Shown: positions 1 through 18,634 of the stretch, in pieces | Layout: the number at the start of each line of letters is the position of its first letter | Numbering within the stretch: the first letter of the stretch is position 1 | Source of the DNA: Acutalibacteraceae bacterium | Lineage (GTDB): Bacteria > Bacillota > Clostridia > Oscillospirales > Acutalibacteraceae | Direction of reading: 5' to 3' | DNA length: 64,000 nt | Assembly (NCBI GenBank): GCA_045121005.1 | Contig: JBGVFJ010000065.1 | Location: 29,776 to 93,775, forward strand | Translations under genes and position numbers: made by a program | Notes under the pieces: model-generated | Database searches by the model: none | What the model was told of the DNA's origin: nothing | Seen by the model: the letters and a program-made list of their open reading frames with translations, nothing else

Positions 1-5
1 GCTGT

Positions 6-2159
6 ATGGCTTGGGATCACGTATTCATCCGCTTTAACGGAAGCTACCGAAACAGTAAAAACTTTGAAGAAGCCGTTACCGCTGTTTTTGATTGCGATAA
101 CGATTTTACGGAAGATGCTGCGAGGTGGATCTCCCCGGAGGATATCGCACGGCTGTTTCCCGATGTTTCGTGTGTGGTCAGTACCAGCCGACACCATATG
201 AAACAGAAAGGAAGCAAATCACCACGCCCCAGATTTCACATTATCTTCGCAATCGAACCTATTACAGATCCTGCGGAATACACCGCTTTTATGAAGTTGG
301 TACAGCAGATGTATCCCTTTTTCGATGATAACGCTTTGGATGCTGCCAGGTTCTTCTTCGGCAATCCCGACAACGAGGTGACTTTCTTTGAAGGTAACAC
401 TACCTTAACCGCATTTATTGAAGAAGAGGTTGCGGAAAGGGCGTTTGCCGAGCTGGGTGAAACTATTACCGAAGGCAGCCGTAATAACACAATGTCCCTT
501 TTCGCAGGTAAGTTACTTAAACGGCTCGGAGATACGGATGAGGCTCATACGAAATTTCTTGAACGAGCCGAATCTTGCACCCCGCCTTTGGAGGATGGTG
601 AGCTTGAAACTATATGGCAGAGTGCCAGGAAGTTTTATAAAAAGGTATGCTCTCAACCGGGATACGTCGCTCCCGAGGAGTATAACGCTCCCTCACCGAT
701 AAAGTGGGAAATACCGATACCTTTTGAAAAAGCCAATCTGCCGACTTTCCCGACGGAATCTTTACCGAAGGTTGTCCGTGACTATGTTACGGCAGTAGCG
801 GAAAGCACACAGACTCCCGTGGATATGAGTGCCTCGGCGGCACTTGCCATTCTTGCACTGTGCGAACAAGGCAAATTCCGTATTCGTGGTAAAGCGGATT
901 GGACAGAACCGCTGAATCTGTTTGTGGTTGTGGTAGCGGAGCCTTCGGAAAGAAAGAGTGCCGTTATCAGTTTGATGACCCGTCCCGTGAATGCCTTTGA
1001 AGCGGATTACAACCGACAAAACGCAGCCGAACTTGAAACAAGCAAAATGAATAAGCGAATCTTGGAACGTCGGCAACGAGCCTTGGAGGATAAAGCCGCC
1101 AAAGGAAAAGTCGAGGACGGCGAACTGGAACAGTTGGCACAACAGCTTGCCTCATATAAAGAAAGGACACCCCTTCGATTATATGTGGATGACGTTACCA
1201 CGGAGAAGCTGACCGCTGTTTTGGCAGACGGTGGCGGTAAGGCAGCCATCGTATCAGCCGAGGGCGGTATCTTTGATATGCTCTCGGGTATTTACAGCAA
1301 AAATGTCAATATCGACGTTATGCTCAAAGGTCATTCCGGTGACAGTATCCGTGTGGACCGTATCGGCAGAAACAGCGAAAGTATTATGAATCCCGCACTG
1401 ACGGTTCTGCTTACGGTGCAGCCGAATGTGCTGTCGGGGATGATGCAAAACGGCACATTCCGCGGCAGAGGCCTTACAGCAAGATTTCTCTATTGTATGC
1501 CGAAATCCATAGTCGGTAATCGCAGATACAGAACCGAACCTATCCCTACCGATGTAGCAAGACAGTACGATCTGCTTGTTCAAAATCTCTTGGAAGAAGA
1601 ACAAGGTGAATTTCCCGAGGAGATTACCTTAACCCCGGAAGCGGATGAAATGCTTGAAGCCTTCTCTTATGAGATAGAAAGCAAGCTGAAGACCGAATAT
1701 GCGGATATGGCAGATTGGGCGGGCAAACTTGTGGGTGCAGTTCTTCGCATCGCAGGTGTTTTATGCCGTTCTTCGGTTTATCGCAATAACGGATTTCTGG
1801 AATCTGCCGAACCCTTGATGGTGGATGAGACCACAATGCAAAATGCTATCTCAATCGGCAGATATTATACCGAACACTCTGCGGCGGCATTCTCCCTTAT
1901 GGGAGCGGATGCCTTGGTGAAACAAAGTGAGTATATGCTGGATGCCATTTGCAAAAGCGGTCTTACAGAATTTACCCGCCGTGACATTATGCGACTCTGC
2001 CGCAGTTTCAAAACAGCCGATGAAGTACAACCGGTACTGAACCACTTGACCGAATACGGATACATTGCCCCCAAAACAAGCGATGTCCAATCCGGCAAAG
2101 GCAGACCTACGGGTCAAGCCTATCTTGTCAATCCTTATCTTTGTGAAAAGGCATCGTAA
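6..2159 (+). CDS. Replication protein of an integrative element: AEP-type primase-polymerase-like N-terminus, PriCT-1-like segment, DUF3987 (YfjI-like) C-terminal domain
   Basis: 717-aa ORF. Motifs seen: PRFHIIFAIEP (AEP-like), EGSRNNTMSLFAGKLL...PPLEDGELETIWQSARKFY (PriCT-1-like), LPKVVRDYVTAVAESTQTPVDMSASAALA... (DUF3987-like). The frame is open to the window edge, so the true start may lie upstream. Confidence 0.75.
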   Translation: MAWDHVFIRFNGSYRNSKNFEEAVTAVFDCDNDFTEDAARWISPEDIARLFPDVSCVVSTSRHHMKQKGSKSPRPRFHIIFAIEPITDPAEYTAFMKLVQQMYPFFDDNALDAARFFFGNPDNEVTFFEGNTTLTAFIEEEVAERAFAELGETITEGSRNNTMSLFAGKLLKRLGDTDEAHTKFLERAESCTPPLEDGELETIWQSARKFYKKVCSQPGYVAPEEYNAPSPIKWEIPIPFEKANLPTFPTESLPKVVRDYVTAVAESTQTPVDMSASAALAILALCEQGKFRIRGKADWTEPLNLFVVVVAEPSERKSAVISLMTRPVNAFEADYNRQNAAELETSKMNKRILERRQRALEDKAAKGKVEDGELEQLAQQLASYKERTPLRLYVDDVTTEKLTAVLADGGGKAAIVSAEGGIFDMLSGIYSKNVNIDVMLKGHSGDSIRVDRIGRNSESIMNPALTVLLTVQPNVLSGMMQNGTFRGRGLTARFLYCMPKSIVGNRRYRTEPIPTDVARQYDLLVQNLLEEEQGEFPEEITLTPEADEMLEAFSYEIESKLKTEYADMADWAGKLVGAVLRIAGVLCRSSVYRNNGFLESAEPLMVDETTMQNAISIGRYYTEHSAAAFSLMGADALVKQSEYMLDAICKSGLTEFTRRDIMRLCRSFKTADEVQPVLNHLTEYGYIAPKTSDVQSGKGRPTGQAYLVNPYLCEKAS

Positions 2160-2172
2160 ACGAGTTTTGTCC

Positions 2173-2308
2173 TTTATGTCCCTTTGTCCCCAAAGGTATG
2201 GGAATAAAGAAAAATATAGAAAAAGTAATCGTTAAACTACAGCTTTCTATATACGGATGTTTACCCACACTCCCACGCATACGGACAGCGTGACAAAAAG
2301 GACATAAA
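2173..2308. repeat. Imperfect ~17-bp inverted repeat bracketing the intergenic region after the primase gene, built from AAAGGACA-type units
   Basis: TTTATGTCCCTTTGTCC at 2173-2189 versus the reverse complement of GACAAAAAGGACATAAA at 2292-2308. A further forward copy, GTGACAAAAAAGGACA, lies at 2554-2569. Confidence 0.5.
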
Positions 2309-2328
2309 TATTGGAAGGAGAAAAGGAT

Positions 2329-2535
2329 ATGGCAGACATTGATGAAAAGCGGTACACCACAGTAAAGGTCATATCGCTGAAAGAAGGTAGTGTCACCGTA
2401 GCATACGGCAATTATCCCGCCGATCCAAGGTGGCATTTACTATATGAAAACCAAAGCAAAACATTCGACAACTTCAGCCGAATTTTCGAGTATTGCAACG
2501 CCCGTTTCAAGAACCCCTTCGGCGGGGTCTTATAG
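2329..2535 (+). CDS. Hypothetical small protein (element-borne)
   Basis: The ORF-track entry is 2311-2535. The internal ATG at 2329 is preceded by GGAAGGAGAAAAGGAT. No recognisable motif. Confidence 0.45.
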   Translation: MADIDEKRYTTVKVISLKEGSVTVAYGNYPADPRWHLLYENQSKTFDNFSRIFEYCNARFKNPFGGVL

Positions 2536-2600
2536 TGCGTTGTTCTGATATATGTGACAAAAAAGGACAAAAGGAAAAAACAACGGAAGGAGGTGTAAGT

Positions 2601-2945
2601 ATGTATAAAACCAAAAAGGATTATGCCCAGGATAAACTCTGCCGTGAAATCGGCAACGGGTGTCGTATTCTTCGCGTTGATGGAGAGCGATGCATTTATC
2701 GCGACTTCGGTAATGGATTTAATGTGGAAGTCAGCGGAACACACACCACAAGCAAGCGTAGAAAAGCTGTCATCTTTTTGTGGTACGGGAGTGCGTTCAC
2801 GGTTACGTGTATAAAGGAAGTGCCATTCGCGGAAATCGGTAATGTGATAAGCAGACTCTACGATTACACTTGTGAGCTTTGCCGCACCGGTGCCGCCACG
2901 GAAAAGAACCTCGGCGAACTCAGGTACGAACGTCCGCAGGTTTGA
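2601..2945 (+). CDS. Hypothetical protein (element-borne)
   Basis: The ORF-track entry is 2493-2945. The ATG at 2601 is preceded by GGAAGGAGGTGTAAGT. No recognisable motif. Confidence 0.5.
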   Translation: MYKTKKDYAQDKLCREIGNGCRILRVDGERCIYRDFGNGFNVEVSGTHTTSKRRKAVIFLWYGSAFTVTCIKEVPFAEIGNVISRLYDYTCELCRTGAATEKNLGELRYERPQV

Positions 2946-3179
2946 TGCAGATACCTTCGGGAGCTATTCCCTTTAAAACTTATGCGAATTTTTGCACACG
3001 ACCCCTGGGCCGTTGCCCGGAGTTATAGTCGTAGAGATTTAGCCCCCCTGGGGGGTATCGAAATCCCCACAGCTTTTTACTTATGCAACGGGCGTGGGGC
3101 GTCACGTAAAAAATCGCAAAATCAAACGGGGTATTAACCCCAACATCAACTAATCAAAAATAATGGAGGAATTAACCAT

Positions 3180-4196
3180 ATGAAAACAGCAAGAACCTAT
3201 GAAGAACTTAAATCCCGTCTGGACGAATTGTCCGGCAATACTGTTGAAAAGCAGACAAATAATACTGCCGAAGCCAAGAAAAAGGCCAAGGCATACAATA
3301 CCGCTTTCTGGGAAACCATGCACACCGGTATGCCCCAAAATACACTAAAGGAAGGTAGTGACGGCTCGGGCGGCTACCTTGTTCCCGATACTTATGACGA
3401 TAGGCTTGTGCAGGCATTAAAGCAAAAGAACGTCCTTCGTCAAATCGCCACCGTCATTCCCACAACGCAGAAACTGACCATTCCCGTTTCTTTAGGCGGT
3501 GAAAACGCAAGCTGGATGCCGGAAAACGAGCCATACACGTTTTGTGAAGCAGAATTCGGTGAAATCGAGATCGATGCGTATAAGCTCGGCAGCTCTATTC
3601 TCGTTTCTGATGAGCTGCTTGAGGACTGTGGCGTTGACCTTAAAAAATATATCGAGGAAGCCTTTGCTCACCGAATCGGCAATGCCGAGGAATCTGCCTT
3701 TATCCGAGGAGACGGAAACGGAAAGCCTCTCGGTATTATTCACCAGGCTTCTATTGGTAAGGTCACGGATGAGAAAGGCAAAATCAGTGCAGATGACTTG
3801 GTCGATATGGAGTTTTCTTTGGCAGAGCCTTATCGCAAAAATGCGGTGTGGGTTATGTCCAACGATGCATATTGCAGACTTGGACAGCTGCGCCATTATC
3901 GTGGTAATCCTATCTGGAGTAACGGACTTGAAGAGGAAATGCCTATGAAACTGTTCGGCTATCCCGTCTATATTTGTAACCATATGGATGACGTCACCCC
4001 CGGTAGCATTCCGGTAATGTTCGGTGACTTCAGTTACTACTGGATCGGTGACCGAGGCAAGAGAGTCATTAAACGCCTGGTAGAGCGTTACGCTGATCAC
4101 GGGCAGGTTGCATTTATCACCACCGAGCGCGTTGATGCAAAACTCGTTCTTCCCGAAGCAATAAAGATGCTTAAGGTCAAGAGTGACAAGGAATAA
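3180..4196 (+). CDS. Phage major capsid protein, HK97 family
   Basis: 338 aa with RBS GGAGGAATTAACCAT upstream of the ATG. It has a short coiled-coil-like N-terminus, then typical HK97-family stretches (GGYLVPDTYDDRLVQALKQKNVLRQIATVIPT..., ESAFIRGDGNGKPLGI..., FGDFSYYWIGDRG). Confidence 0.85.
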   Translation: MKTARTYEELKSRLDELSGNTVEKQTNNTAEAKKKAKAYNTAFWETMHTGMPQNTLKEGSDGSGGYLVPDTYDDRLVQALKQKNVLRQIATVIPTTQKLTIPVSLGGENASWMPENEPYTFCEAEFGEIEIDAYKLGSSILVSDELLEDCGVDLKKYIEEAFAHRIGNAEESAFIRGDGNGKPLGIIHQASIGKVTDEKGKISADDLVDMEFSLAEPYRKNAVWVMSNDAYCRLGQLRHYRGNPIWSNGLEEEMPMKLFGYPVYICNHMDDVTPGSIPVMFGDFSYYWIGDRGKRVIKRLVERYADHGQVAFITTERVDAKLVLPEAIKMLKVKSDKE

Positions 4197-4264
4197 GGTT
4201 GTGTGGGAGGGCGGCTTTCGGGTCGCTCTCCCTTACTCTTGTAGTCATAGGAAGGAGATATGCC

Positions 4265-4639
4265 ATGACACTACAAAACAAAATTGCCATTAACAATATG
4301 CGGCTTGAGGGGCATAGCCCTTCTGTGATTGCCGCCACTTTAGGTTTATCTGCCGGGACCGTCCGTGCTCACATTCACAGATACCCGGAGATACCGAACA
4401 CCAAGCTTTGCAAGAGCTGCGGTAAGCCCGTACTTCAAACAGAAAAACGCAGGGAGAAAAAGTTCTGTTCGGATGCTTGCCGAATGCTGTGGTGGAACTC
4501 CCACCGGGACTTGGTGAACCGCAAAGCCTATTACAATCTTACCTGCGAATACTGCGGAAAGGAGTTTGAGAGCTATGGCAACAAAAACCGAAAATACTGC
4601 AGCCGTGCCTGCTACGTTGCGTCAAGACAAGCAGGATAA
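4265..4639 (+). CDS. Sigma70-region-4/LuxR-type HTH protein with C-terminal double CxxC zinc-ribbon (putative element regulator)
   Basis: ATG at 4265 after GGAAGGAGATATGCC. HTH-like NMRLEGHSPSVIAATLGLSAGTVRAHIHR. Cysteine pairs CKSCGK...CSDAC and CEYCGK...CSRAC. Confidence 0.65.
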   Translation: MTLQNKIAINNMRLEGHSPSVIAATLGLSAGTVRAHIHRYPEIPNTKLCKSCGKPVLQTEKRREKKFCSDACRMLWWNSHRDLVNRKAYYNLTCEYCGKEFESYGNKNRKYCSRACYVASRQAG

Positions 4640-4802
4640 ATACGCAGCCGAAAATATAATGCTGTACCGAACCTCCCTGGCTCTGCTCAAAAGCCTTGCG
4701 GAAGACGGCACATTTACCGAAAAAGAGTATTGTAAGATATCGACAATGCTGTCCCGTAAATACGGTTTATCTTCGGGTAGTATATTTGCGGAATCTGCTT
4801 GA
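4575..4802 (+). CDS. Hypothetical small protein upstream of the recombinases (start uncertain: 4566 TTG, 4575 ATG or 4659 ATG)
   Basis: ORF-track entry 4566-4802. GGAAAGGAG lies 10 nt upstream of the ATG at 4575. It overlaps the end of the preceding gene in another frame. Confidence 0.35.
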   Translation: MATKTENTAAVPATLRQDKQDKYAAENIMLYRTSLALLKSLAEDGTFTEKEYCKISTMLSRKYGLSSGSIFAESA

Positions 4803-4863
4803 TATATCCGCCAGTTAGAGCGAATATGTAGTGACCTTAATTGATACAAAGGAGGTAAATGTA

Positions 4864-6144
4864 TTGGAAAGGATCGTTACACAGACTCGTTTTGCAAAAA
4901 CGGAATTGCCGAGAGCAAAACGGGTGGCGGCATACGCCAGAGTATCTTCCGGTAAGGATGCGATGCTCCACTCACTTTCCGCCCAGGTGAGTTATTACAG
5001 CAAATTGATACAGACCCACGGCGGATGGGAGTATGCAGGCGTATACGCCGATGAAGCTCTGACCGGGACAAAGGACAACCGAGAAAACTTTCAAAGGCTT
5101 CTTGCGGATTGCCGAAACGGAAAGGTGGATATGATTTTAACCAAGTCCGTTTCGCGCTTCGCAAGAAATACGCTGACCTTACTCGAAACCGTAAGGGAAC
5201 TAAAGGACCTGGGTGTAGATGTTTACTTTGAAGAGCAAAATATACATTCGGCAACCTCGGATGGTGAGTTGATGCTTACAATCCTCGCAAGCTATGCTCA
5301 AGAGGAAAGCCTCTCCGCCAGCGAGAATCAAAAGTGGAGGGTACGGCAACAGTTTCAAAACGGAAAACCCTGGCGCGGTTTTATGATGGGATACCGATAC
5401 GATGGTGAGAAATACGTCATCATTCCCGAGGAGGCAGAGGTGGTTCGTTCTATATTTCGTGACTACCTTGACGGCAAAGGTGTCGCCGCCATTATGAAAC
5501 GGCTCAACGAAGAAGGGATCCTCACGCAGCAAGGTTGCACCTGGCATCAAAGCGCCGTGAGCAGAATCCTTCGCAACTACGCCTATACAGGCAACCTTCT
5601 ACTTCAAACTAAATTCCGTGAAAATCACCTCACCAAACGCACACTGGTAAATCACGGAGAACTTCCGCAGTACCACGCAGAGAACACCCACGAGCCGATC
5701 ATTGATATCGGCACCTATAACTTGGTACAACTGGAGATGGCAAGGCGGGCGGAGCGTTTTGCAAAGCCACAAACGAAAACAGAATACCCTTTTACGGGAC
5801 TTATCACCTGCGCCGGGTGCGGAAAGCACTACCGCAGAAAGGTAACGAAAACGGGCCCCGTATGGATATGTGCCACCTACAATACCCTCGGCAAAAAAGT
5901 CTGCCCGTCAAAAGCCATCCCCGAACCGACTTTGATGGCACTTGCCGCCGAGATTGATGATTTCAGTAAAATAACGGCAATTACAGCCGACAAAGATAAC
6001 ACCTTGATATTCTCCCTTATAAACGGAGAAGCAATCGTTAAACGATGGAAAGACCGCTCACGCTCGGAAAGTTGGACTCCCGAGATGAGGGCAGCGGTCG
6101 GTAAAAAAACAAAAGAAAGGAGTAAGCAAAATGGCAACAGCTAA
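4864..6144 (+). CDS. Large serine recombinase (resolvase domain + recombinase domain + zinc ribbon)
   Basis: ORF-track entry 4831-6144. TTG at 4864 follows AAGGAGG by about 8 nt. Catalytic-serine motif RVAAYARVSSGKD, then ...SRFARNT..., and the C-terminal Cys cluster CAGCGKHY...CATYN...CPS. Confidence 0.9.
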   Translation: MERIVTQTRFAKTELPRAKRVAAYARVSSGKDAMLHSLSAQVSYYSKLIQTHGGWEYAGVYADEALTGTKDNRENFQRLLADCRNGKVDMILTKSVSRFARNTLTLLETVRELKDLGVDVYFEEQNIHSATSDGELMLTILASYAQEESLSASENQKWRVRQQFQNGKPWRGFMMGYRYDGEKYVIIPEEAEVVRSIFRDYLDGKGVAAIMKRLNEEGILTQQGCTWHQSAVSRILRNYAYTGNLLLQTKFRENHLTKRTLVNHGELPQYHAENTHEPIIDIGTYNLVQLEMARRAERFAKPQTKTEYPFTGLITCAGCGKHYRRKVTKTGPVWICATYNTLGKKVCPSKAIPEPTLMALAAEIDDFSKITAITADKDNTLIFSLINGEAIVKRWKDRSRSESWTPEMRAAVGKKTKERSKQNGNS

Positions 6145-7720
6145 AAATGTAACCGTAATACCCGCCACACGAAACTTGCACACGGGTATCCCCACCACCT
6201 CAAAGGCAAAACGCAAGGTCGCAGGTTACGCCCGTGTATCCACCGACAGCGATGAACAGTTCACAAGCTATGAGGCGCAGGTGGATTATTACACCAATTA
6301 CATCAAAAGCCGTCCCGAGTGGGAGTTTGTTGAAGTCTATACCGATGAAGGCATCTCCGCACTCAACACCAAAAAGCGTGATGGCTTTAACCGAATGATA
6401 GCAGACGCCCTTGGTGGCAAAATTGACCTCATCGTAACCAAAAGTGTAAGTCGCTTTGCCCGTAACACTGTGGACAGCCTCACCACCGTCCGCAAGCTGA
6501 AGGACAAGGGTGTTGAGGTGTATTTTGAAAAGGAAAATATATGGACGATGGACTCCAAGGGCGAGTTGCTTATCACGATCATGTCATCCCTTGCCCAGGA
6601 GGAGAGCCGTTCCATTTCCGAGAACGTAACCTGGGGGCAACGCAAACGATTTGCTGACGGCAAGGTCAATATGCCGTACAAACAGTTTCTCGGATACAGA
6701 AAAGGCGCAGACGGTCTGCCCGAGATCGTTCCCGAAGAAGCAGAAATCGTCCGCACCATTTACCGAATGTTTGTGGAAGGTATGTCCGCAGGCTCTATCG
6801 CAAAACACTTGACCGAAAACGGTGTTCCTACGCCATCCGGGAAAGCGGTATGGCAAAGACATACGATCGAGAGCATCCTTCAAAACGAGAAATACAAAGG
6901 CTCGGCACTTTTGCAGAAGAAATACACCGTGGATTTTCTGCAGAAAAAGATGAAGGTCAACGAGGGTGAAGTTCCGCAGTATTATGTGGAACACAGCCAT
7001 CCCGCCATCATCGCACCGGAAGAATGGGAACGGGTTCAGTTGGAACTGAAACGCAGAAAGGACAGCGGCAGACGCACCTTTTCCACCAGTCCCTTTGCCG
7101 GGAAACTCATCTGCGGAGATTGCGGTGAGATCTTCGGCTCAAAGGTATGGCACTCAAACAGCAAATACCGCCGAACCATATGGCAATGTAATGCAAAATT
7201 CAAGGGTGACACCATATGCACCACACCGCATTTATATGAGGATGACATCAAGGAGCTGTTCGTAGTAGCGCTAAGCAAGTTGCTTGCGGATCGTGAGGCG
7301 CTTCTTGAGGACGGCAGGCTCATCCGTCATGAGCTGTTGGATACCGCTGCGATCGATACAGAATGCGAGGAACTCCTCCAAGAGATGGATGTGGTCGCAG
7401 GCCTTATCCAAAAGTGCATCAACGAAAATGCCGTAAAAGCTATCGACCAAGATGAATATATCAGCCGATATAACTCCTTGGTGGAACGCCACGAAAAGGC
7501 TCAAAACCGCTATGACACTTTGCAGAAAAAGCGTGAACGCAGGCTCATCCAGGCGGATGTTATGAGCGGATTCCTTTTCGCCATCACCGAACTTGACAAC
7601 CTCCAACTTCAATTCAACCCGCCCCTCTGGCATACCACCGTCGACCACGTAACCGTGTACGCAGATGAGCGTTTGGTGTTTCATTTCAAAAATGGCAGCG
7701 AGGTTGAGGTTCAAATCTGA
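6131..7720 (+). CDS. Large serine recombinase (second copy, longer C-terminal coiled-coil/DUF4368-like tail)
   Basis: 529 aa. KVAGYARVSTDSDEQ catalytic motif, SRFARNT, Cys cluster CGDCGEIFG...CNAKF...C. Its start overlaps the stop of the upstream recombinase by 14 nt. Confidence 0.9.
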   Translation: MATAKNVTVIPATRNLHTGIPTTSKAKRKVAGYARVSTDSDEQFTSYEAQVDYYTNYIKSRPEWEFVEVYTDEGISALNTKKRDGFNRMIADALGGKIDLIVTKSVSRFARNTVDSLTTVRKLKDKGVEVYFEKENIWTMDSKGELLITIMSSLAQEESRSISENVTWGQRKRFADGKVNMPYKQFLGYRKGADGLPEIVPEEAEIVRTIYRMFVEGMSAGSIAKHLTENGVPTPSGKAVWQRHTIESILQNEKYKGSALLQKKYTVDFLQKKMKVNEGEVPQYYVEHSHPAIIAPEEWERVQLELKRRKDSGRRTFSTSPFAGKLICGDCGEIFGSKVWHSNSKYRRTIWQCNAKFKGDTICTTPHLYEDDIKELFVVALSKLLADREALLEDGRLIRHELLDTAAIDTECEELLQEMDVVAGLIQKCINENAVKAIDQDEYISRYNSLVERHEKAQNRYDTLQKKRERRLIQADVMSGFLFAITELDNLQLQFNPPLWHTTVDHVTVYADERLVFHFKNGSEVEVQI

Positions 7721-7765
7721 CTTGAGTATGTTATAATTTCATAACTATCACTTAGGAGGATGAAT

Positions 7766-7960
7766 ATGAAGAAAAACAAGGATATTTATATGGAACCGGA
7801 AGTGTATCGGCACAACAACTGCATCGTTAAGGTATACCGCCCGATTCTAACCGAAGAAGAACGTGCAAGACGGATGGAGGAAATCAAAAAAGCTGCGGTT
7901 GCCCTTATTATAGCGACAGAAAAAGCAAAGCAAAATAAGAATCGGTTGTTTAACGAATAG
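7766..7960 (+). CDS. Hypothetical small protein (last ORF of the element)
   Basis: ATG at 7766 lies 6 nt after AGGAGG. The product is a 64-aa basic/acidic helical-looking peptide. Confidence 0.45.
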   Translation: MKKNKDIYMEPEVYRHNNCIVKVYRPILTEEERARRMEEIKKAAVALIIATEKAKQNKNRLFNE

Positions 7961-8032
7961 CGGTAGTTTAACGATAGGTCGGTATGAATATTGGGTTGAG
8001 TCCCGGGGTGGGACTATAAAAACAATCAAAAA

Positions 8033-8082
8033 AGCGTTGCAGGATGGGTGGAATACTCCCAAAATGCAACGCTTGTTTTTAT
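8033..8082 (+). terminator. Rho-independent terminator after the element's last ORF
   Basis: Stem AGCGTTGCA (8033-8041) / TGCAACGCT (8065-8073), followed by TGTTTTTAT. Confidence 0.6.
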
Positions 8083-8121
8083 AAGTGCTTATTCTGCCTA
8101 TGTTTTTTGCGGTAAAATAAC

Positions 8122-8159
8122 GATACCGCTGTCGACACGATTGTATCAACAGCGGTATC
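8122..8159. terminator. Bidirectional hairpin terminator abutting the 3' end of tRNA-fMet
   Basis: 11-bp stem GATACCGCTGT / ACAGCGGTATC. A U-run follows on both strands (TGTTTTGG on +, GTTATTTTACC on -). Confidence 0.6.
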
Positions 8160-8164
8160 TGTTT

Positions 8165-8241
8165 TGGTTGCGGAGGTAGGATTTGAACCTACGGCCTCCG
8201 GGTTATGAGCCCGACGAGCTACCAAGCTGCTCTACTCCGCG
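8165..8241 (-). tRNA. Initiator tRNA-fMet (anticodon CAT), CCA encoded
   Basis: Reverse complement reads CGCGGAGTAGAGCAGCTTGGTAGCTCGTCGGGCTCATAACCCGGAGGCCGTAGGTTCAAATCCTACCTCCGCAACCA (77 nt). It shows a C1:A72 mismatch and GGG/CCC closing the anticodon stem, both typical of bacterial initiator tRNA. Confidence 0.9.
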
Positions 8242-10534: not shown

Positions 10535-13318
10535 ATGATGAAAAAAAGAATTTTAAGCGTTATTCTTTCCATCGCAATGCTGCTAACAGCAACACCCCTT
10601 ATGTCTGTTGCGTCAGAAAGCGAATATGTTTATATGTCTGTAAGCTATGATGACAAATATACCGATGACAAAAACGGCAATCCCATAGCTTATATTCCCG
10701 TATCCCTCGAAACACTTCAATCTGTTGATTTGAACGAATACAATCTTTCTGAATATCTTTATGACGAAGACGGTGACGGCAATTATGACATTACAGCATT
10801 ACAGCTTATCATCTATGCTCACGAAGAGCTTTATGGCGGTGATTGGAGCGAGGTAACTTTCACAGGTAGTCCCGGAAGTTCATATTTCGCAGGAGGTCTT
10901 TTCGGCAGAGATGAAAACCTCAACTATTATCTGAACGGTCAGTATCCTCTTGCAAGCGGAGGATGGGGTGCAACCTCTGACCAGATTGTTCTTGAAGCAG
11001 GCGACTTTATTGACCTTGCAGGCTTTACAAGCTGGGATTTCTATCAGGACTCGGCTTACGGTTTTCATTATTTTGCTGATGCAAACGGTGATGTAACACA
11101 TTCTTACACCACAGAAACAGCCAAAGCTTGCGACATCAAGCTTATTAAAGGCACAAAGGATTATGAATACAATTCCGTTTTCTTTGAAATACCTGATTAT
11201 GAAGTACATTACGGTAAAGCACTCTATAATGAAACAGGAAGTGTAACAACAGATGACAGCGGATGTGCATCTATCACTTTCCCATCTGCAGGAAAATGGT
11301 ATCTTTGGGTTGACGGAGGTTATGGTAACGAATATCCCGATTCTATAGTTTCTGCTCCCGGCTATGCAGAGGTAACAGTTACATCGGCGGATGCTCCCCG
11401 TGAGCCTCAGGATGTAAGCGCTGTGCTTAATGCTACAATGGCACAGCTTGCTGATACAGTACAAGAACCTGCTTTCGGTACAAACGCAGGTGAATGGACA
11501 GTGTTGAGTCTGGCACGCGGTGAATATTTTGAAAAGAACAGCACTTATTTTAATGATTACTACAACCGTATTGTTTCAACAGTAAATGAAACAGCTTCAT
11601 CGGTTAATATGAACGGTGCACTCCACAAAAACAAATCAACTGAAAATTCCCGTCTGATTGTTGCTCTTTCATCTATCGGTAAGGATGCAACTGCTGTTGG
11701 TGATTGGAATCTTGTTGAAGCATACAGCCTGAACGGTTTTGATTGGGTTAAAAAGCAGGGTCTTAACGGTACGATATGGGCACTTATCGCGTTGGATTCG
11801 GGCAACTATGAAACAAGCGATGAAACCATCCGTCAGCAGTGTATTGATTCCATCCTCTCACTTCAGCATGATGATGGCGGTTGGGCATTACAGGCAAACA
11901 AGACTTACGCATCTGACCCTGATGTTACGGGTATGGCGCTTCAGGCTTTGTATCCCTATCGCAATCAGACAGCTGTAGCTGAAGCTTGTGAAAAAGCATT
12001 TGATTGTCTTTCTGAAATCCAGCACGAAAACGGCACATTTGCATCAGGCGGAAGTGAATGCTCTGAAAGCTGTGCATGGGTAATCGTTGCCTGCACAACA
12101 TGGGGCATCAATCCTGATACCGACAGCCGTTTTGTAAAGAACGAAAAATCTGTTGTTGACGGACTTCTTCTCCATTATCTTGAAGATAAGGCGCAGTTTG
12201 AACATATTGCAGACGCAGGTGCAAACGGTATGGCTACTGACCAATCCTGCTACGCTCTTGTTGCCTACAAGCGTTTTATAAATAACAAAACAAATCTTTT
12301 TGATATGTCTGATGTTGCATTTGATGAAAATGTTGAAATCGTTCCCGGTAAGATGACAGCAACTCTCGGTCTTCCTGCTGAAATATCCGATGAGGTCGGC
12401 AAAACTTTCAACGCAACAATCAGCATCGACCAGTGGGATAACAACGCAGGCTACAAGCTTATTGATTTTATTATGAATGTTCCCGAAGGTCTTACAGTTA
12501 CGGCAGTTACAGCCGAAAGCCGTCTTTCGGGCGGAACGGTAAATTACAACGTTGAAGAAAGCACAGGCAAACTCCGTGCAGTTTACTTTGACGCTAACAA
12601 CCATAGCGATATCACAGTAAGCGGAACCACCTTCCCGGCACTTCTTTTCACAATTACTTTCCGTGTCGATTCCGTAACTGCAGGCAACAAGCTTGGCTTT
12701 AACATCAGCGGAATGTCCGTTAAACTCAATTCAGATTCTGCGGATGAAAACTCTATGATTATTGTTGACATTACGGATGCAAGCGGTACGGTAAATGTTG
12801 TAACAGGTGTTTCTTATAGCGCAATGTGTCTCTATGTTGGTGATAATGTTGACCTTATCCCCTCGGAGAAAATGGCCGTTGCAGTAGCAGTTGTCGGTGC
12901 AAAGGCAGGAGCAAAGCTCAGCTACAACGACGGCATCAACGGTTATGAATTCAAGTACAGCACAGAAATTTCTGATAAAACAGGTATTTCAACTTACGTT
13001 GCACTTGTTGATTCTTCAATTGATATGGCGAATTTTGTTGATAAGCAGAATTTTGTTCTCTCTGATGACAACGCTGATGAAATCACATTCGGTGATGCAA
13101 ACGGCGACGGAGTAATCAATGCACAGGATGCACTCGGTGCAGTTGATTCCTGGCTTCGTAAAACAGATGCACCGTCAGATGACAAGATTCTCGCCCTCAA
13201 TGTGAACAGTGACAGCAGAATCAATACATTTGATGCTCTCGGCATCGTTGAAGCGTTTGTAGACGGCAGTGAATACATTGTTGTTACAAAGGCAGCAACT
13301 ATTACAGCTAATAACTAA
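10535..13318 (+). CDS. Secreted multidomain protein: DUF4430-like N-domain, alpha/alpha-toroid (prenyltransferase/transcobalamin alpha-domain-like), cohesin-like module, C-terminal dockerin
   Basis: 927 aa. Signal peptide MMKKRILSVILSIAMLLTATPLMSVASE. NYYLNGQYP...DQIVLEAGDFIDL is DUF4430-like. The toroid repeats show LQHDDGGWALQ and IQHENGTFASGG. See the cohesin and dockerin sub-features. Confidence 0.75.
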   Translation: MMKKRILSVILSIAMLLTATPLMSVASESEYVYMSVSYDDKYTDDKNGNPIAYIPVSLETLQSVDLNEYNLSEYLYDEDGDGNYDITALQLIIYAHEELYGGDWSEVTFTGSPGSSYFAGGLFGRDENLNYYLNGQYPLASGGWGATSDQIVLEAGDFIDLAGFTSWDFYQDSAYGFHYFADANGDVTHSYTTETAKACDIKLIKGTKDYEYNSVFFEIPDYEVHYGKALYNETGSVTTDDSGCASITFPSAGKWYLWVDGGYGNEYPDSIVSAPGYAEVTVTSADAPREPQDVSAVLNATMAQLADTVQEPAFGTNAGEWTVLSLARGEYFEKNSTYFNDYYNRIVSTVNETASSVNMNGALHKNKSTENSRLIVALSSIGKDATAVGDWNLVEAYSLNGFDWVKKQGLNGTIWALIALDSGNYETSDETIRQQCIDSILSLQHDDGGWALQANKTYASDPDVTGMALQALYPYRNQTAVAEACEKAFDCLSEIQHENGTFASGGSECSESCAWVIVACTTWGINPDTDSRFVKNEKSVVDGLLLHYLEDKAQFEHIADAGANGMATDQSCYALVAYKRFINNKTNLFDMSDVAFDENVEIVPGKMTATLGLPAEISDEVGKTFNATISIDQWDNNAGYKLIDFIMNVPEGLTVTAVTAESRLSGGTVNYNVEESTGKLRAVYFDANNHSDITVSGTTFPALLFTITFRVDSVTAGNKLGFNISGMSVKLNSDSADENSMIIVDITDASGTVNVVTGVSYSAMCLYVGDNVDLIPSEKMAVAVAVVGAKAGAKLSYNDGINGYEFKYSTEISDKTGISTYVALVDSSIDMANFVDKQNFVLSDDNADEITFGDANGDGVINAQDALGAVDSWLRKTDAPSDDKILALNVNSDSRINTFDALGIVEAFVDGSEYIVVTKAATITANN
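12350..12805 (+). other. Cohesin-like module inside the 927-aa protein
   Basis: KMTATLGLPAEISDEVGKTFNATISIDQ...GYKLIDFIMNVPEGLTVTAVTA...GKLRAVYFDANN...ALLFTITFRVDSVTAGNKLGFNISGMSV has the alternating beta-strand pattern of type-I-like cohesins. Judged by eye. Confidence 0.55.
13082..13267 (+). other. Dockerin module (two calcium-binding F-hand loops)
   Basis: ITFGDANGDGVINAQDALGAVDSWL...LALNVNSDSRINTFDALGIVEAFVDG contains two DxNxDxxIxxxD-type loops about 34 aa apart. Confidence 0.8.
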
Positions 13319-13364
13319 CTGATTATTAAGGGGTGGGACTGACACTCCCACCCCTCTTGGGAGA

Positions 13365-13997
13365 ATGAATATGAGCAAAAGTAAATTGGAACCGAAAACA
13401 AAAAAGAGAATAAAAATTGGTATCTCAATCGGCGTTTTACTGCTTTTGTTGATACTGATTCTCCTTTTTTCATTCTGCGGTGAAAACCCGTTCGGCAAAC
13501 CTACACTTACAATAGAAACTCCGCAGAAAATCAGCCTTTCCGAAACAGATGAAATCACCCTCGATGTGACAATATCATCATTCGGTGAAGCTAAATATCC
13601 GGCTGCAAGTATGAGCATTGTATTTGACCCGTCAAAGCTTGAGTTTATAGGTATAGAAGAAGGTAACGTTTTTATCCGTAATGACGGCGAAGAGATTGAA
13701 CAAAGACTGCCGGACTGGAGCTGTAACCCGACACAATGCAACAAAACGGGTAAAATCAACATTATGTACCTTGACACAACAGGCGGAAAGAATGCGTTTG
13801 ACAAAGACTTGCTTGCAAAGGACGACAATGTTGTGCTTCGCCTGAAATTCCGTCTCAGAGGAAGTCTTCGCAAAGGCGATGTATGTGACCTTGTTTTCGA
13901 AGATGCTGTTTTTGCGGCATCAGACGAAACACAAAGTCTGGCAATGACAACCGGTACACTTAATGTCAGAAACGGTAAAATTGTTATAGGAGATTAA
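13365..13997 (+). CDS. N-terminally membrane-anchored cohesin-like protein
   Basis: 210 aa. Basic N-terminus plus TM segment IGISIGVLLLLLILILLFSF. Cohesin-like body: AASMSIVFDPSKLEFIGIEEGNVF...GKINIMYLDTTGG...VVLRLKFRLRGSLRKGDVCDLVFEDAVFA. Confidence 0.6.
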   Translation: MNMSKSKLEPKTKKRIKIGISIGVLLLLLILILLFSFCGENPFGKPTLTIETPQKISLSETDEITLDVTISSFGEAKYPAASMSIVFDPSKLEFIGIEEGNVFIRNDGEEIEQRLPDWSCNPTQCNKTGKINIMYLDTTGGKNAFDKDLLAKDDNVVLRLKFRLRGSLRKGDVCDLVFEDAVFAASDETQSLAMTTGTLNVRNGKIVIGD

Positions 13998-13998
13998 A

Positions 13999-15117
13999 AT
14001 GAAAAGAATAATATGTTTAATATTAGCCTTCGTGCTTCTTATGACAACTACAGCCTGCAGTGGTAATTTCACACAGGTTAACCTTAATGAACCCATAGCT
14101 ATTCCGGAAAACGGGATTGTTGAGAAAAGTGTTTTAGATAAAATCAGAAACGAGAACGCTATCGCCACATTCACAGGTTCATCAAATGATATTAAATACG
14201 AATGGACAGTTTTCGGCAGTGATATCAATGAGACAAAGGATGTAAATTTATCCGTTGTCCTGAACAAATCAGATAAGGGCATAAAGGTCAATTTTACCGA
14301 AACGAAGGATTTGGGCTTTCCTGCCCTGCTTTCTATTCATATCAACGAAAAATGGTCAGCAGACAGTGCAACTGCTTTTAACGGTGGCAAGGGTGTTTAT
14401 TCTGTTTCTGTAACAGGCAGTAAAACAAGTATTCTGAATATATCTGTAAACAAGATTGTTCCTGAAATTGAAATTCTGCCTGATAAAACAAATTATACAG
14501 AAGACACTACTGCAGAAAATACAAATCCGACAGAAAATAATTCTGTTTCAGGCGGAAAAGACAATTATCTTTCAGGTGTGCAGAGCTCTGGTGACAGAGT
14601 TTATTCTGACGGTACAGCAACAGAAAAAGATAAATATGAAACAGACCCCGTACCCGAAGGAAAACCTATGCCCGTTGAGCCTGAAAATCAGGAAATCAAC
14701 AACAAAAAGAAATACACCTGCACCTTTTCCATTGAATGCTCAACAATCCTGAATAACCTTTCTGACCTTGACCCTGATAAACGTCATCTGGTACCTTCAG
14801 ACGGTGTTATTTTACCGCCTACAAAGGTGACATTCTATGAAGGTGAATCAGTCTATGATGTGCTTCAGCGTGTTTGTAAGGAAAACAACATACATATGGA
14901 ATCCTCATGGACTCCTGTTTATAACAGTGCCTATATTGAAGGCATAAACAATCTTTATGAATTTGACTGCGGTGAGCTTTCAGGCTGGATGTACCGCGTT
15001 AACGGATGGTATCCAAATTACGGTTGCTCCCGTTATCAGCTTGCAGACGGCGAGGTTGTAGAATGGCGTTATACATGCGACCTCGGTAACGATGTCGGTC
15101 GTGAAGGAACTTGGTAA
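13999..15117 (+). CDS. Lipoprotein with C-terminal DUF4430 (transcobalamin beta-domain-like) domain
   Basis: Lipobox-like LLMTTTAC. Low-complexity linker. C-terminal CTFSIECSTILNN...VTFYEGESVYDVLQRVCKENNI...GWMYRVNGWYPNYGCSRYQLADGEVVEWRYTCDLG. Confidence 0.7.
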   Translation: MKRIICLILAFVLLMTTTACSGNFTQVNLNEPIAIPENGIVEKSVLDKIRNENAIATFTGSSNDIKYEWTVFGSDINETKDVNLSVVLNKSDKGIKVNFTETKDLGFPALLSIHINEKWSADSATAFNGGKGVYSVSVTGSKTSILNISVNKIVPEIEILPDKTNYTEDTTAENTNPTENNSVSGGKDNYLSGVQSSGDRVYSDGTATEKDKYETDPVPEGKPMPVEPENQEINNKKKYTCTFSIECSTILNNLSDLDPDKRHLVPSDGVILPPTKVTFYEGESVYDVLQRVCKENNIHMESSWTPVYNSAYIEGINNLYEFDCGELSGWMYRVNGWYPNYGCSRYQLADGEVVEWRYTCDLGNDVGREGTW

Positions 15118-15122
15118 AATTT

Positions 15123-16013
15123 ATGAGAGATTCATTTTCAGAATATCATCCCTTTATAAACCTAATATATTTTGCATTTACGATAAGCTTTTCTCTTGTG
15201 CTGACGCACCCATTGGCACAGGGGATTTCTCTCGTGTGTGCAATTATTTATGCAGTAAGTATAAACGGGAGGAAAAGCGTGATATTTCTCTTGAAATACT
15301 GTCTGCCGATGGTGCTTCTGACTGCATTTATCAACCCTGCGTTCAATCACGAGGGCTCAACAACTCTGCTGTATTTCCCGAATGGCAATCCTCTTACGCT
15401 TGAAAGTATTTTATACGGATTTTCTGCAGGTGTGATGATAATTACAACGCTGATGTGGTTTTCGTCGTTCAACTCAGTGATGACAACGGACAAGTTTATC
15501 TATCTTTTCGGCAAGGTTATTCCCGCTTTGTCACTTGTGCTGAGTATGTCTTTAAGATTTGTTCCTAAATTCAAATCGCAGATGCAGACGGTCACCGAAG
15601 CACAAAGAAGCATCGGCAGAGATGTGTCGAACGGAAGTCTGTTACAGAGAACAAAGACGGCAATTCACATCTTTTCAATTATGATAACCTGGTCACTCGA
15701 AAATGCCATTGAAACAGCTGACAGTATGAAAAGCCGCGGATACGGATTAAAAGGCAGAACTGCATTTTCAATTTATCGCTTTGATGAAAGAGATAAATAT
15801 ACACTTGCATGGCTTTCTTTCTGTGGATTGTTTCTTGTTGCAGGAACTATACTTAATGCTTTCGGGTTCAGATATTTCCCGGATATTCGTTATGCTGCAT
15901 TTGATATGACAACAATACCTTTCTACTGTGCGTACTCTGCACTTTGCATTACACCCGTGATATTAAACTTAAAGGAGGAGAGAAAATGGAAAACTTCAGT
16001 TTCAGGAATGTAA
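15123..16013 (+). CDS. ECF transporter transmembrane (T) component, EcfT/CbiQ family
   Basis: ORF-track entry 15111-16013; an ATG lies at 15123. Polytopic membrane protein with a conserved-looking ...AQRSIGRD... / ...SMKSRGY... region. The RBS is weak, so the start is uncertain. Confidence 0.75.
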   Translation: MRDSFSEYHPFINLIYFAFTISFSLVLTHPLAQGISLVCAIIYAVSINGRKSVIFLLKYCLPMVLLTAFINPAFNHEGSTTLLYFPNGNPLTLESILYGFSAGVMIITTLMWFSSFNSVMTTDKFIYLFGKVIPALSLVLSMSLRFVPKFKSQMQTVTEAQRSIGRDVSNGSLLQRTKTAIHIFSIMITWSLENAIETADSMKSRGYGLKGRTAFSIYRFDERDKYTLAWLSFCGLFLVAGTILNAFGFRYFPDIRYAAFDMTTIPFYCAYSALCITPVILNLKEERKWKTSVSGM

Positions 16014-18634
16014 GCTTCGCATATCCCGAGCAGGAAAACAAAGCTCTCCGTAATATCTCCTTTGAGGTAAATCAGGGTGAATTTCTGATTCTTTGCGGTC
16101 CGTCAGGCTGCGGCAAATCAACACTTCTGCGTCACCTCAAAACCTGCCTTACACCTCACGGTGTAGTTAACGGTGAAATTCTGTTTAACGGCAAACCGCT
16201 TAATGAGGTTAACGAAAGAACACAGGCACAGGAAATCGGCTTTGTGCTTCAGTCTCCCGAAAATCAGGTGGTAACCGATAAGGTATGGCACGAGCTTGCT
16301 TTCGGACTTGAAAGCCTTGGGCTTGATACGCCAACTATCCGCCGCCGTGTGGCAGAGGTTGCAGCATTCTTCGGTATTGAAAATTGGTTCTATAAGAATG
16401 TAACCGAGCTTTCAGGCGGTCAGAAACAGCTTCTCAGCCTTGCTTCGGTTATGTGTATGAATCCGAAAATACTTGTTCTCGATGAACCTACGGCACAGCT
16501 TGACCCTATTGCCGCTTCTGATTTCCTTGCTCTTCTCGGGAAAATCAACCGTGAGCTCGGTATAACGGTTATTCTTACCGAGCACAGACTTGAAGAAGCT
16601 TTTCCCTTTGCAACAAGAGTTATTGTTATGGAGAAAGGTGAAATTATCTGTGATGATTCTCCCGAAAAAGTTGGACTTCATCTTCGTCAAAAGGATAACG
16701 GAATGTTCCTTGCTATGCCTACAGCAATGAGAGTGTGGGCAGGTGTTGAAACGAAGCTTGACTGTCCGATTACCGTACGTGACGGTAGTGAGTTCCTGAC
16801 TGAAAGAAGCAAAGAAAAAGCACTTCTTCCCCTTGAAAGGGAAAAAGTGCATACATATACTGATGAAATAACTCTTGAGTGTAATGAAATATGGTTCAGA
16901 TACGAAAAAGACCTGCCTGATGTTATAAAAGGCTTTTCTCTCACTCTGCACAAGGGTGAATTTTATGCAATTCTCGGCGGTAACGGTGCAGGTAAAACAA
17001 CAACGTTGAAAGTAATTTCGGGACTTCGCAAGGCTTACCGAGGTAATGTAAAAGCGAACGGTAAGGTTGGAATGTTACCACAGAATCCGCAAGCGCTTTT
17101 TGTAAAAAGAACAGTGCGTGAGGATTTATATGAGGCTCTCAGTAATGTAAAAATCTCAAAGAAAGAAAAGGATGAGCAGGTTTCCCGTGTAGTTGGTCTT
17201 TGCTCGCTGACCGATTTTCTTGACCGACATCCATATGATATTTCAGGCGGTGAACAGCAAAGAACCGCACTTGCAAAGGTTCTTCTTACCGCACCCGATA
17301 TACTTCTTCTCGATGAGCCGACAAAAGGCTTTGATGCAGAATTCAAGGTAGTATTTGCGGATATTATCGGTAAACTAACAAATCAGGGCGTAACCGTGCT
17401 TATGGTCAGCCATGATGTGACCTTCTGTGCAGAGTATGCACACAGATGCGGTATGTTTTTTGACGGTAATATTGTTGCAGAGGGCACTCCCCGTGAGTTT
17501 TTCTCAGGCAATAGCTTCTACACAACATCTGCAAACCGTATGGTAAGGCACCTCATTCCCGATGCGGTAACGGTTGATGAAATCATTGCTTGCTGTGGCG
17601 GAGAAATCAAGAAAAAAGAAAGTACGGATGAAATAACACCTTTGCCTGAGCCTGCCCCGAGAAGTGTAAATTTCAAGCCTGAACCACTTAAACTATGGCG
17701 TAAAATTCTTGCTGCAGCATCAGGGCTTGTTTCATTGGCTGTATTTTTCTATGCAACGGGAATTACCGATTTATCAGCACTTATAAATTCTTCGGGAATA
17801 AGTGAAGCGGGTAAAAATCAATTATGGCTTTACGGGATTTTGTTTGTTGCTCTTACCGTGTTTATGATTGCAATCGGAAGACGGAGCGAACCACCGCTTA
17901 TAGTGCAGACGCCGAAAGAAAAACGGAATTTAAGCAAGCGGACAATTGTGGCATCTGTTGCTATATTGCTCTTTATTCCTCTGACCATATTTGCAGGAAT
18001 TTTCTATCTCGACAACCGACAGTATAACATTGTCGCACTGCTTGTGCTTTTAGAGTGTATGTTGCCGTTTATTCTCGTATTTGAGGGCAGAAAGCCTAAG
18101 GCAAGAGAGCTTGTGACAATTGCCGTGCTTTGTGCAATCGGAATAGCAGGCAGAAGTCTCTTTTTTATGCTACCTCAGTTCAAGCCTGTTCTTGCACTCA
18201 CAATAATCGCAGGTGTGGCTTTCGGCGGAGAAGCAGGATTCCTTGTAGGCGCCGTTACAATGCTTCTTTCAAATATGCTGTTCTCTCAAGGACCGTGGAC
18301 ACCGTGGCAGATGTTTGCAATGGGTATTATAGGTTTTCTTGCGGGTGTTCTTTTCAAAAAAGGATTGCTTCGCAGAACACGGGCATCACTTGCCGTTTTC
18401 GGTGCGTTTGCCGCTGTTGTTATTTACGGCGGAATAATGAACCCTGCATCAATGCTTATGTATTCGTCACAGACAATAACAGTTAAAGCCTTGATGGCAT
18501 ATTATATTTCAGGTCTTCCCATGGACTTGGTACACGGCTTCGGAACAGTTATATTCATTATGCTCGCTGCCGAACCAATGCTTGAAAAAATGGACCGTAT
18601 CAAGGTAAAATATGGGTTTTTAACTGATTGTTAA
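15986..18634 (+). CDS. Fusion protein: two ABC ATPase domains (EcfA-EcfA type) plus a C-terminal ECF S-component-like membrane domain
   Basis: ATG at 15986 after AAAGGAGGAGAGAAA. Walker A GPSGCGKST and GGNGAGKTT, signatures LSGGQKQ and ISGGEQQ. The C-terminal ~300 aa has about 6-7 hydrophobic helices. It overlaps the T-component gene by 28 nt. Confidence 0.8.
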   Translation: MENFSFRNVSFAYPEQENKALRNISFEVNQGEFLILCGPSGCGKSTLLRHLKTCLTPHGVVNGEILFNGKPLNEVNERTQAQEIGFVLQSPENQVVTDKVWHELAFGLESLGLDTPTIRRRVAEVAAFFGIENWFYKNVTELSGGQKQLLSLASVMCMNPKILVLDEPTAQLDPIAASDFLALLGKINRELGITVILTEHRLEEAFPFATRVIVMEKGEIICDDSPEKVGLHLRQKDNGMFLAMPTAMRVWAGVETKLDCPITVRDGSEFLTERSKEKALLPLEREKVHTYTDEITLECNEIWFRYEKDLPDVIKGFSLTLHKGEFYAILGGNGAGKTTTLKVISGLRKAYRGNVKANGKVGMLPQNPQALFVKRTVREDLYEALSNVKISKKEKDEQVSRVVGLCSLTDFLDRHPYDISGGEQQRTALAKVLLTAPDILLLDEPTKGFDAEFKVVFADIIGKLTNQGVTVLMVSHDVTFCAEYAHRCGMFFDGNIVAEGTPREFFSGNSFYTTSANRMVRHLIPDAVTVDEIIACCGGEIKKKESTDEITPLPEPAPRSVNFKPEPLKLWRKILAAASGLVSLAVFFYATGITDLSALINSSGISEAGKNQLWLYGILFVALTVFMIAIGRRSEPPLIVQTPKEKRNLSKRTIVASVAILLFIPLTIFAGIFYLDNRQYNIVALLVLLECMLPFILVFEGRKPKARELVTIAVLCAIGIAGRSLFFMLPQFKPVLALTIIAGVAFGGEAGFLVGAVTMLLSNMLFSQGPWTPWQMFAMGIIGFLAGVLFKKGLLRRTRASLAVFGAFAAVVIYGGIMNPASMLMYSSQTITVKALMAYYISGLPMDLVHGFGTVIFIMLAAEPMLEKMDRIKVKYGFLTDC

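Follow-up and report, generated by a model that had tools for sequence, protein, structure and literature searches.

Gene content and extent of the element

The window analysed here is a 64,000-nucleotide stretch of the genome of a gut Acutalibacteraceae bacterium (assembly GCA_045121005.1, contig JBGVFJ010000065.1, hereafter C65, positions 29,776 to 93,775; negative window positions lie to its left on C65), and its left end belongs to an integrative element that carries a single HK97-fold capsid gene. Judged from its sequence, this is a 24.8-kb element with defined ends, defence cargo, an excisionase gene (xis), a primase gene, two cos-like sites, a lone capsid gene and a tandem serine-recombinase module. 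A first-pass annotation of the window had taken it to span 8 kb and to resemble a phage satellite or capsid-remodelling island; the exact length is 24,790 bp between two CCA junctions, most of it defence cargo, and the window holds only the right-hand third.

The core genes in the window lie on the + strand. The first of them (1..2159, starting at window −102, C65:29673) encodes a 753-residue primase/helicase with archaeo-eukaryotic primase (AEP)-like DxD and His motifs, a PriCT domain and DUF3987, as expected of the prim-pol-type replicase initially proposed, and is directly preceded outside the window by xis, an excisionase-like HTH_17 gene (C65:29491-29673). The primase is 51% identical to that of a full prophage in genome G296. 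The first-pass annotation had the element replicate through a primase-type protein; the gene is not a fixed part of the family core, being swapped or missing in relatives, whose replicases are of the DUF3987, DUF927 or NrS-1/D5 type or are lacking altogether. The capsid gene (3180..4196, 338 amino acids; PF05065, E 1.3e-70; TIGR01554, 304 bits) begins 234 nt after the preceding open reading frame (ORF), which ends at 2945. It is followed by a terminator-like hairpin (4205..4232, a pattern match only), a gene for a helix-turn-helix (HTH) and double zinc-ribbon protein (HTH-Zn, phrog_2308; 4262..4639) that also precedes the recombinases in full prophages, a small SHOCT_2 protein of the recombination module recognised by family scan (4566..4802), and two large serine recombinases. 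Recombinase 1 (4831..6144) has resolvase, recombinase and zinc-ribbon domains and is 44% identical to a protein of phage NatCom_11578; recombinase 2 (6131..7720) overlaps it and is 60% identical to its counterpart in the same phage. ORF map and family scans thus agree with the first reading in the position of the capsid gene, of the non-coding gap and small ORFs before it and of the regulator behind it, and both recombinase genes are complete.

The 16.6 kb of the element to the left of the window carries defence cargo. Leftward from the window, the HTH_17 gene is followed by a divergent gene of 291 amino acids, a kinase matching Stk2 at 734 bits, a DUF4314 gene, an HTH_26 gene and an LlaJI-type restriction-modification cluster of three C5 methyltransferases, a McrB-like AAA protein and the LlaJI nuclease; beyond these lie two more cargo genes, a DUF6809 gene and a third large serine recombinase, accompanied by a separate SHOCT gene, just inside the distal end (C65:13354-15116; L001:3579-5341). 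The third recombinase is kept in the relative G224 and missing in G210. In relatives the cargo is different in each copy and consists mostly of restriction or abortive-infection genes. The excess of NCG and CGN codons first seen by eye could be quantified: core genes exceed the genome in GC content at third codon positions (GC3, 0.524 versus 0.445), in NCG/NCN (0.208 versus 0.102) and in CGN/Arg (0.70 versus 0.52), and the cargo genes are AT-rich (GC3 0.337).

The ORFs of C65 1-39,000 include no recognisable head or tail gene, nor do those of the element left of the window include one for terminase, portal, protease, tail or lysis. Searches of the element for TerS, TerL, portal, connector and tail markers gave no match, and no relaxase or conjugation gene was seen in it. 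The lack of portal, terminase, protease and tail genes noted for the first 8 kb of the window holds for the extended contig as well, and the head genes that might have been missed to the left, as part of an upstream head-tail module, are not there.

Several smaller features complete the right-hand third. Directly 3′ of the primase stop, A/T- and GTCC-rich inverted repeats (2165-2307) are a candidate origin. They are followed by a conserved 74-residue ORF (2311..2535) with homologues at the same position in relatives (orf80) and by a 114-residue ORF (2601..2945) that has no Pfam or PHROG match, falls only into hypothetical clusters of the Atlas and is 96% identical in L003 and L004. Between recombinase 2 and the right-hand end, a 66-residue ORF (7760-7960) gives a weak Pfam match only (Acb2/Tad1 hairpin, E 0.02). 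In some relatives an ArpU/RinA-like or sigma-region-4 gene (L277:5513-5914), a possible late-gene regulator, takes the place of xis before the primase.

The lone capsid and the cos-like region

The capsid belongs to a lineage of its own. Distinct capsids with at least 50% identity to it (n = 17, 329-343 amino acids) have TerL, portal or ClpP nearby in 0 of 17 cases; at 40-46% identity, 173 of 175 capsids lie behind portal or ClpP in ordinary prophages. In a quick, unrooted tree the lone capsids form one branch (SH-aLRT 100, a likelihood-ratio branch test). The HTH-Zn gene and recombinases follow the capsid in 16 of the 17 relatives, and in 6 of 17 a P27-type TerS gene lies directly upstream, between the cos-like motif and the capsid; none is present here. 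Across 11 capsid pairs the ratio of nonsynonymous to synonymous substitution rates (dN/dS) is 0.08-0.19, and the gene is under purifying selection. What sets these proteins apart is the length of their delta region: the residues before the GGYLVP motif number 63 (median) in the lone capsids versus 123 in phages, and the alignment places the loss in the first ~50 N-terminal residues; the second helix and the presumed maturation region are retained. A delta domain shorter than that of the helper is also what distinguishes Ccm, the capsid homologue of the Staphylococcus aureus pathogenicity island (SaPI) SaPIbov5, in which it is 44 residues shorter (PMC5052747).

A structural model built from 96 sequences (predicted local distance difference test, pLDDT, 84.5) gives a helical delta region of ~55 residues. 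Its top 50 structural matches are capsids of phages, gene transfer agents (GTAs) or capsid-forming phage-inducible chromosomal islands (cf-PICIs), among them RcGTA, Mycofy1, cf-PICI EcCI2, T5 and HK97; no encapsulin is found among these 50, and Pfam gives Phage_capsid only. As modelled, the protein is an HK97-fold capsid protein and not an encapsulin, which settles the question of class that the first-pass annotation had raised.

Full prophages such as that of G296 contain counterparts of all core genes of the element, arranged in the same order, and single decayed copies do exist, as in L305, whose capsid groups with phage capsids. Both facts would be explained by decay of a prophage, with deletion of its head and tail genes, but the lone capsids form one diverged clade with the same deletion, intact reading frames and dN/dS near 0.1, while their replicases have been swapped and they occupy at least four different tRNA sites. 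As the present state of the element this explanation is largely refuted, and we find it hardly credible; descent of the whole lineage from such a prophage is likely.

Other capsid arrangements were seen around this clade. Sister elements with lone capsids of 299-328 amino acids and ~30-45% identity (L410:2873-14133, L322-L324, L149) mostly carry a cos-like motif, and include a delta-less group of 299-314 residues. L391 (4603-9945) has a cos-like motif, TerS, HTH-Zn gene and recombinase pair, with no capsid gene, and G212 has an att arm and no capsid match. A further set (L023, L125 and L265; also L026, L027, L201, L217 and L218) encodes TerS, TerL, portal, ClpP, capsid, head-tail genes, holin and serine recombinases, with no tail tube or tape-measure gene after the capsid; these are possible head-only, cf-PICI-like relatives.

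The gap before the capsid gene resembles a stretch that full prophages keep directly after the HNH gene and usually before terS. A hidden Markov model (HMM) built from ten prophage HNH-terS junctions only, against which shuffled sequences score at most 10.3 bits, finds its best site in the whole genome at 3051..3144 (+; 59.3 bits, E 6.9e-16) and a second, inverted copy at 2985..3048 (−; 27.2 bits, E 6.6e-6). Of the prophage loci that could be scored, which include training rows of the model, 12 of 13 have the motif behind HNH; it scores 32 bits in NatCom_11578 and, after the HNH gene of Φ1207.3, is recognisable by eye with a weak HMM score. In such phages cos is located between HNH and terS, and the assignment of 3051-3144 as a putative cos or packaging region is positional only. 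An HNH protein, gp74, stimulates cos cleavage in HK97 (PMC11331095), and two cos sites are also found in EcCICFT073 and SaPIbov4 (PMC6092414). No Rfam family or sigma-70 promoter was detected in 2946-3179. One contig (L195) ends within the motif, too few to map a cut.

Integration at the CCA end of tRNA genes

On its right the element abuts a tRNA-Met(CAT) gene (8165..8241, −; found by tRNA scan), identified as the initiator tRNA-fMet because of its C1:A72 pair and GGG/CCC anticodon stem. The tRNA-proximal arm of the element (8122..8164, −) carries the 9-bp motif TTGATACAA at 8149-8141, 15 nt from the terminal CCA of the tRNA (8167-8165), and sits within a hairpin able to replace the tRNA terminator. 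At the distal end the order is an inverted 9-bp motif, 15 nt, CCA (C65:13147-13149, window −16628 to −16626) and a terminator nearly identical to the one after tRNA-Gly on contig C42. These two junctions define the length of the element, and the CCA of tRNA-fMet is the probable crossover core. A right boundary near 7948, suggested by a stretch (7942-8164) shared separately by G002 and L005, was dropped once the arm motif and the distal CCA junctions had been found. The tRNA had been noted as an immediate neighbour, and this is confirmed; its position is no coincidence, however, since insertion by the recombinase pair appears to take place exactly at the CCA end. BLAST and a k-mer scan revealed no conventional att repeat to the left, in which at least 12 nt of the tRNA 3′-end would be duplicated.

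The TTGATACAA arm follows the tRNA in 11 capsid-element loci, and is absent after the other 41 tRNAs of the genome; in capsid-bearing relatives it is found behind Met, Ser, Leu and Arg tRNAs. The rule that a CCA is followed by this arm is not universal, because one relative (L006-L007) lies in reversed orientation to its tRNA-Pro and has a variant motif. Joining the two element ends rebuilds an attP in which inverted 9-bp motifs lie ~16-24 bp to either side of the centre, the positions at which the zinc-ribbon domain of LI integrase binds attP (PMC3783163). Such a joined pattern occurs 30 times in IMG/VR viral contigs, versus 2 for a control core; the spacing is 15/16 in 19 of the 30, homologous recombinases adjoin 20, and both prophages and satellites are represented. 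These attP-type junctions may represent circles or tandem insertions.

Among the sister elements, L410 carries an attP-type junction with a unit of ~12.9 kb. Its reading as an excised circle was rejected: its two ends share only 92% identity, which makes it a tandem or a mixed assembly and no proof of excision. L395, L414 and L396 have two recombinase pairs in facing orientation across or close to a single att junction, an arrangement that suggests tandem or head-to-head insertions. Beyond the distal end of the present element (C65:11730-12259; L001:1955-2484), the 15-nt motif ATCTAAATCGGTGCA is present in two copies, both immediately behind a small gene and the only ones in the genome; similar sequence lies directly after tRNA-Met in G013, G011 and G015. 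This region looks like a second, cassette-like system that accretes at the same tRNA.

Tandem large serine recombinases, Stk2 and restriction-modification cargo and accretion in tandem at one site are also known from staphylococcal cassette chromosome (SCC) elements such as SCCmec (PMC11470126). An SCC-like defence cassette that moves without hijacking virions, its capsid and motif serving other ends (a promoter region, for example, or a regulatory or sensing protein), would agree with these likenesses, with the DUF927 or DUF3987 replicase and with the putative nature of the cos function. Unlike the Ccr proteins of SCC, however, the recombinases score far below the CcrA/B/C NCBIfam cut-offs (138 versus 900 bits), the target is a tRNA rather than rlmH, and the element has a capsid gene and a cos-like site. 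Throughout the clade the motif, TerS and capsid remain neighbours and keep the order they have in phages, the motif region holds neither a sigma-70 promoter match nor an Rfam family, and no relaxase or conjugation gene was seen. We regard such a cassette as very improbable.

Candidate helper phages and proposed packaging

The GenBank phages nearest to the element are the Acutalibacteraceae phage NatCom_11578 (58.7 kb) and the Φ1207.3 group (52.5 kb), with capsid identities of 44-45%; across candidate helper capsids the range is 42-45%. Phages of this type share with the element family TerS (51-56%), the HTH-Zn gene and the recombinase pair at the right end, and the Φ1207.3/Φm46.1-type prophages and NatCom_11578 also have the post-HNH motif (PMC4260502) and a third recombinase or resolvase in the left arm. 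The full prophage of G296, beside a tRNA-Ala, contains primase, motif, TerS, HTH-Zn gene and recombinase pair in the same order. Unlike the element, these phages are 52-59 kb long and encode TerL, portal, ClpP, tail and lysis proteins. The Φ1207.3/Φm46.1-type phages are candidate helpers of the element and probably its ancestors. Elsewhere in the genome, at the end of contig C11 (60933-65351), lies a cluster of terminase, portal, protease and capsid-like genes that is not homologous to the candidate helper markers.

We therefore favour, as rather more probable than all else considered, that the element is a cos-type satellite of Φ1207.3/Φm46.1-like temperate siphophages of Bacillota with a Ccm-like capsid. 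When a helper is active, the recombinase pair would excise the element at its CCA junctions, and the primase would amplify it, helper replication proteins doing so in copies without a primase. The helper terminase and HNH protein would cut and package from the cos-like site, assisted in some relatives by a TerS of their own, and the short-delta capsid would co-assemble with the helper capsid protein, portal and protease. Mixed assembly would be biased to smaller heads that fit 20-25 kb and not the 52-59 kb genome of the helper, as Ccm does for SaPIbov5, where it fills the pentamers of small heads (PMC5052747, PMC8569155). The particle would then bring the restriction-modification and Stk2 genes to a new tRNA end. 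The particles of Φ1207.3 are those of a siphovirus with a 62-nm icosahedral head (PMC9927172); if that head has T=7 symmetry, we estimate on geometric grounds that a T=4 head would hold ~0.43 of the DNA, or 22-25 kb. The four complete elements that could be measured, all with different cargo, are 24.8 (this one), ~24.6 (G210), ~25.4 (G224) and ~19.8 kb (L281) long, the last three having distal ends that match, so that the estimate fits three of four, and a dimer in a full head would fit equally well. The first-pass reading as a satellite or capsid-remodelling island is the best supported, with capsid remodelling itself an inference.

A number of observations weigh against this reading. Sizes are not uniform: L279 would measure at least 27.5 kb if it is one element, and the element amounts to 0.42-0.47 of the helper length, more than the one third that is usual. 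For L277, G162 and G269 no distal end could be located. Several relatives have no primase, cos is placed by position rather than by a mapped cut, and capsid genes of phage-inducible chromosomal islands (PICIs) do not always cause interference or small heads, as in EcCICFT073 (PMC6092414). No helper of this family is assembled in the genome, which is 94% complete, nor does the genome hold a second capsid of the family or a PF03354 TerL. The empty attB of this copy, a site that the first-pass annotation had hoped related strains would reveal, was not found in 57 genomes of the genus, and its exact attP was not found in viral contigs. Two earlier ideas about length were abandoned or softened: a 12.4-kb size first guessed for L277 is unsupported, no distal end having been found, and a tight 25-kb rule is weakened by L281 and L279.

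The size data also bear on a satellite that does not redirect head size, in which the element would be packaged from its cos site into normal helper heads, possibly as ~50-kb dimers, and the capsid homologue would act as a dominant-negative inhibitor of assembly, for defence or interference. Twice 24.6-25.4 kb comes near the 52.5-kb Φ1207.3 genome, the remaining cargo is defence, EcCICFT073 uses full-size heads although it has a capsid gene, and variants exist with TerS and no capsid gene (L391) or with the att arm and no capsid match (G212). The 19.8-kb element is a poorer fit to a dimer, however, and productive assembly is suggested by an HK97 body that is conserved throughout, as are the surroundings of the presumed maturation site; we hold this alternative unlikely, though it deserves more weight than the other rivals. 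A satellite capsid that builds a whole small shell, borrowing portal, protease, terminase and tail from the helper, would stand halfway to a cf-PICI. It would agree with the retained helical delta region, unlike the delta-less sister group, with the 42-45% identity to helper capsids, closer than the Ccm/CP pair appears, and with cf-PICI EcCI2 among the top structural matches, but Ccm alone forms no capsids (PMC8569155) and no member has a portal or protease gene. We consider a self-built shell improbable.

The closest parallels of the favoured cos-type satellite are the cos SaPIs SaPIbov5 and SaPIbov4, with helper φ12, which likewise have a helper-like cos, a short-delta HK97-fold capsid homologue, a primase and an excisionase, and lack portal, protease and TerL (PMC5052747, PMC8569155). 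They differ in several respects: the element has tandem large serine recombinases at its capsid end, whereas SaPIs have a tyrosine integrase beside the repressor; it lies at tRNA CCA ends and belongs to a family of 20-25 kb rather than about 14 kb; its family has an optional full-length TerS and a swappable or missing primase; and the head of its candidate helper is icosahedral, not prolate. PICIs with a capsid gene (EcCICFT073, PmCI172; also the PICI model of SatelliteFinder) share integrase, primase, capsid, optional TerS, two cos-like sites and cargo, without tail or lysis genes (PMC6092414, PMC10085698). The element has several of the features that define a PICI, namely recombinases with CCA att ends, a primase module, and capsid and cos-like motif in the absence of portal, tail and lysis genes. 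Its order from xis through primase and cos to capsid is that of a PICI; the canonical arrangement, with int left of a divergent repressor and then xis, pri-rep, interference and terS genes, is broken by recombinases that lie downstream of the capsid. The type of recombinase differs as well, no AlpA, MerR or Stl match was obtained beside xis (a regulator might lie among HTH_17, the divergent 291-residue gene without a Pfam match and, further left, HTH_26), and the core genes resemble those of the helper family (44-60% identity). The element would work like a cos PICI, yet it does not have the canonical PICI gene order.

The portal, TerL, protease and head-tail proteins that cf-PICIs encode themselves are present in 0 of 17 members, and the head-tail morphogenesis and lysis modules of a complete prophage are missing. 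PICI-like tycheposons and marine virion-encapsidated integrative mobile elements (VEIMEs) are small, tRNA-targeted and carry a major capsid protein (MCP) or TerS, some VEIMEs with serine recombinases (10.1101/2020.12.28.424599; PMC9618062); unlike the element, tycheposons mostly rely on tyrosine integrases, create a partial copy of the tRNA and have no cargo when PICI-like, and VEIMEs have no capsid genes. The element is not a cf-PICI, SCC cassette, tycheposon or encapsulin. No published description of this family was found in a literature search that missed most subscription papers. The principle of a cos site with a capsid homologue is already known from SaPIbov5; what is added here are the half-delta clade, the two motif copies, the exact ends, the targeting of CCA at several tRNAs and the attP-type junctions. 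That all of this represents one satellite lineage derived from its own helper family, with a two-subunit serine integrase acting at the CCA of several tRNAs without tRNA duplication and a half-delta capsid that shrinks an icosahedral helper head to fit 20-25 kb defence islands, is a tentative synthesis that we rate somewhat below even.

If the satellite reading is correct, satellites accompany gut temperate phages of a very common group, relatives of the resistance-carrying streptococcal Φ1207.3 family; models of PICIs that assume the known order of genes may overlook these satellites, which would carry restriction and abortive-infection systems from one member of the Clostridia to another. 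With a full delta in the helper, half a delta here and none in the sisters, the long-standing idea that delta length sets HK97 capsid size becomes directly testable, and the half-delta clade, the delta-less sisters and the head-only relatives without tails would make up a natural series that connects the two. Genetic work in Clostridia could also profit from a pair of serine integrases able to use the CCA end of several different tRNAs.

Outside the element, the window encodes a 927-residue dockerin-like protein with an ECF-type transporter operon (10535-18634) and a secreted-looking protein of 3405 residues (48114-58331, −).

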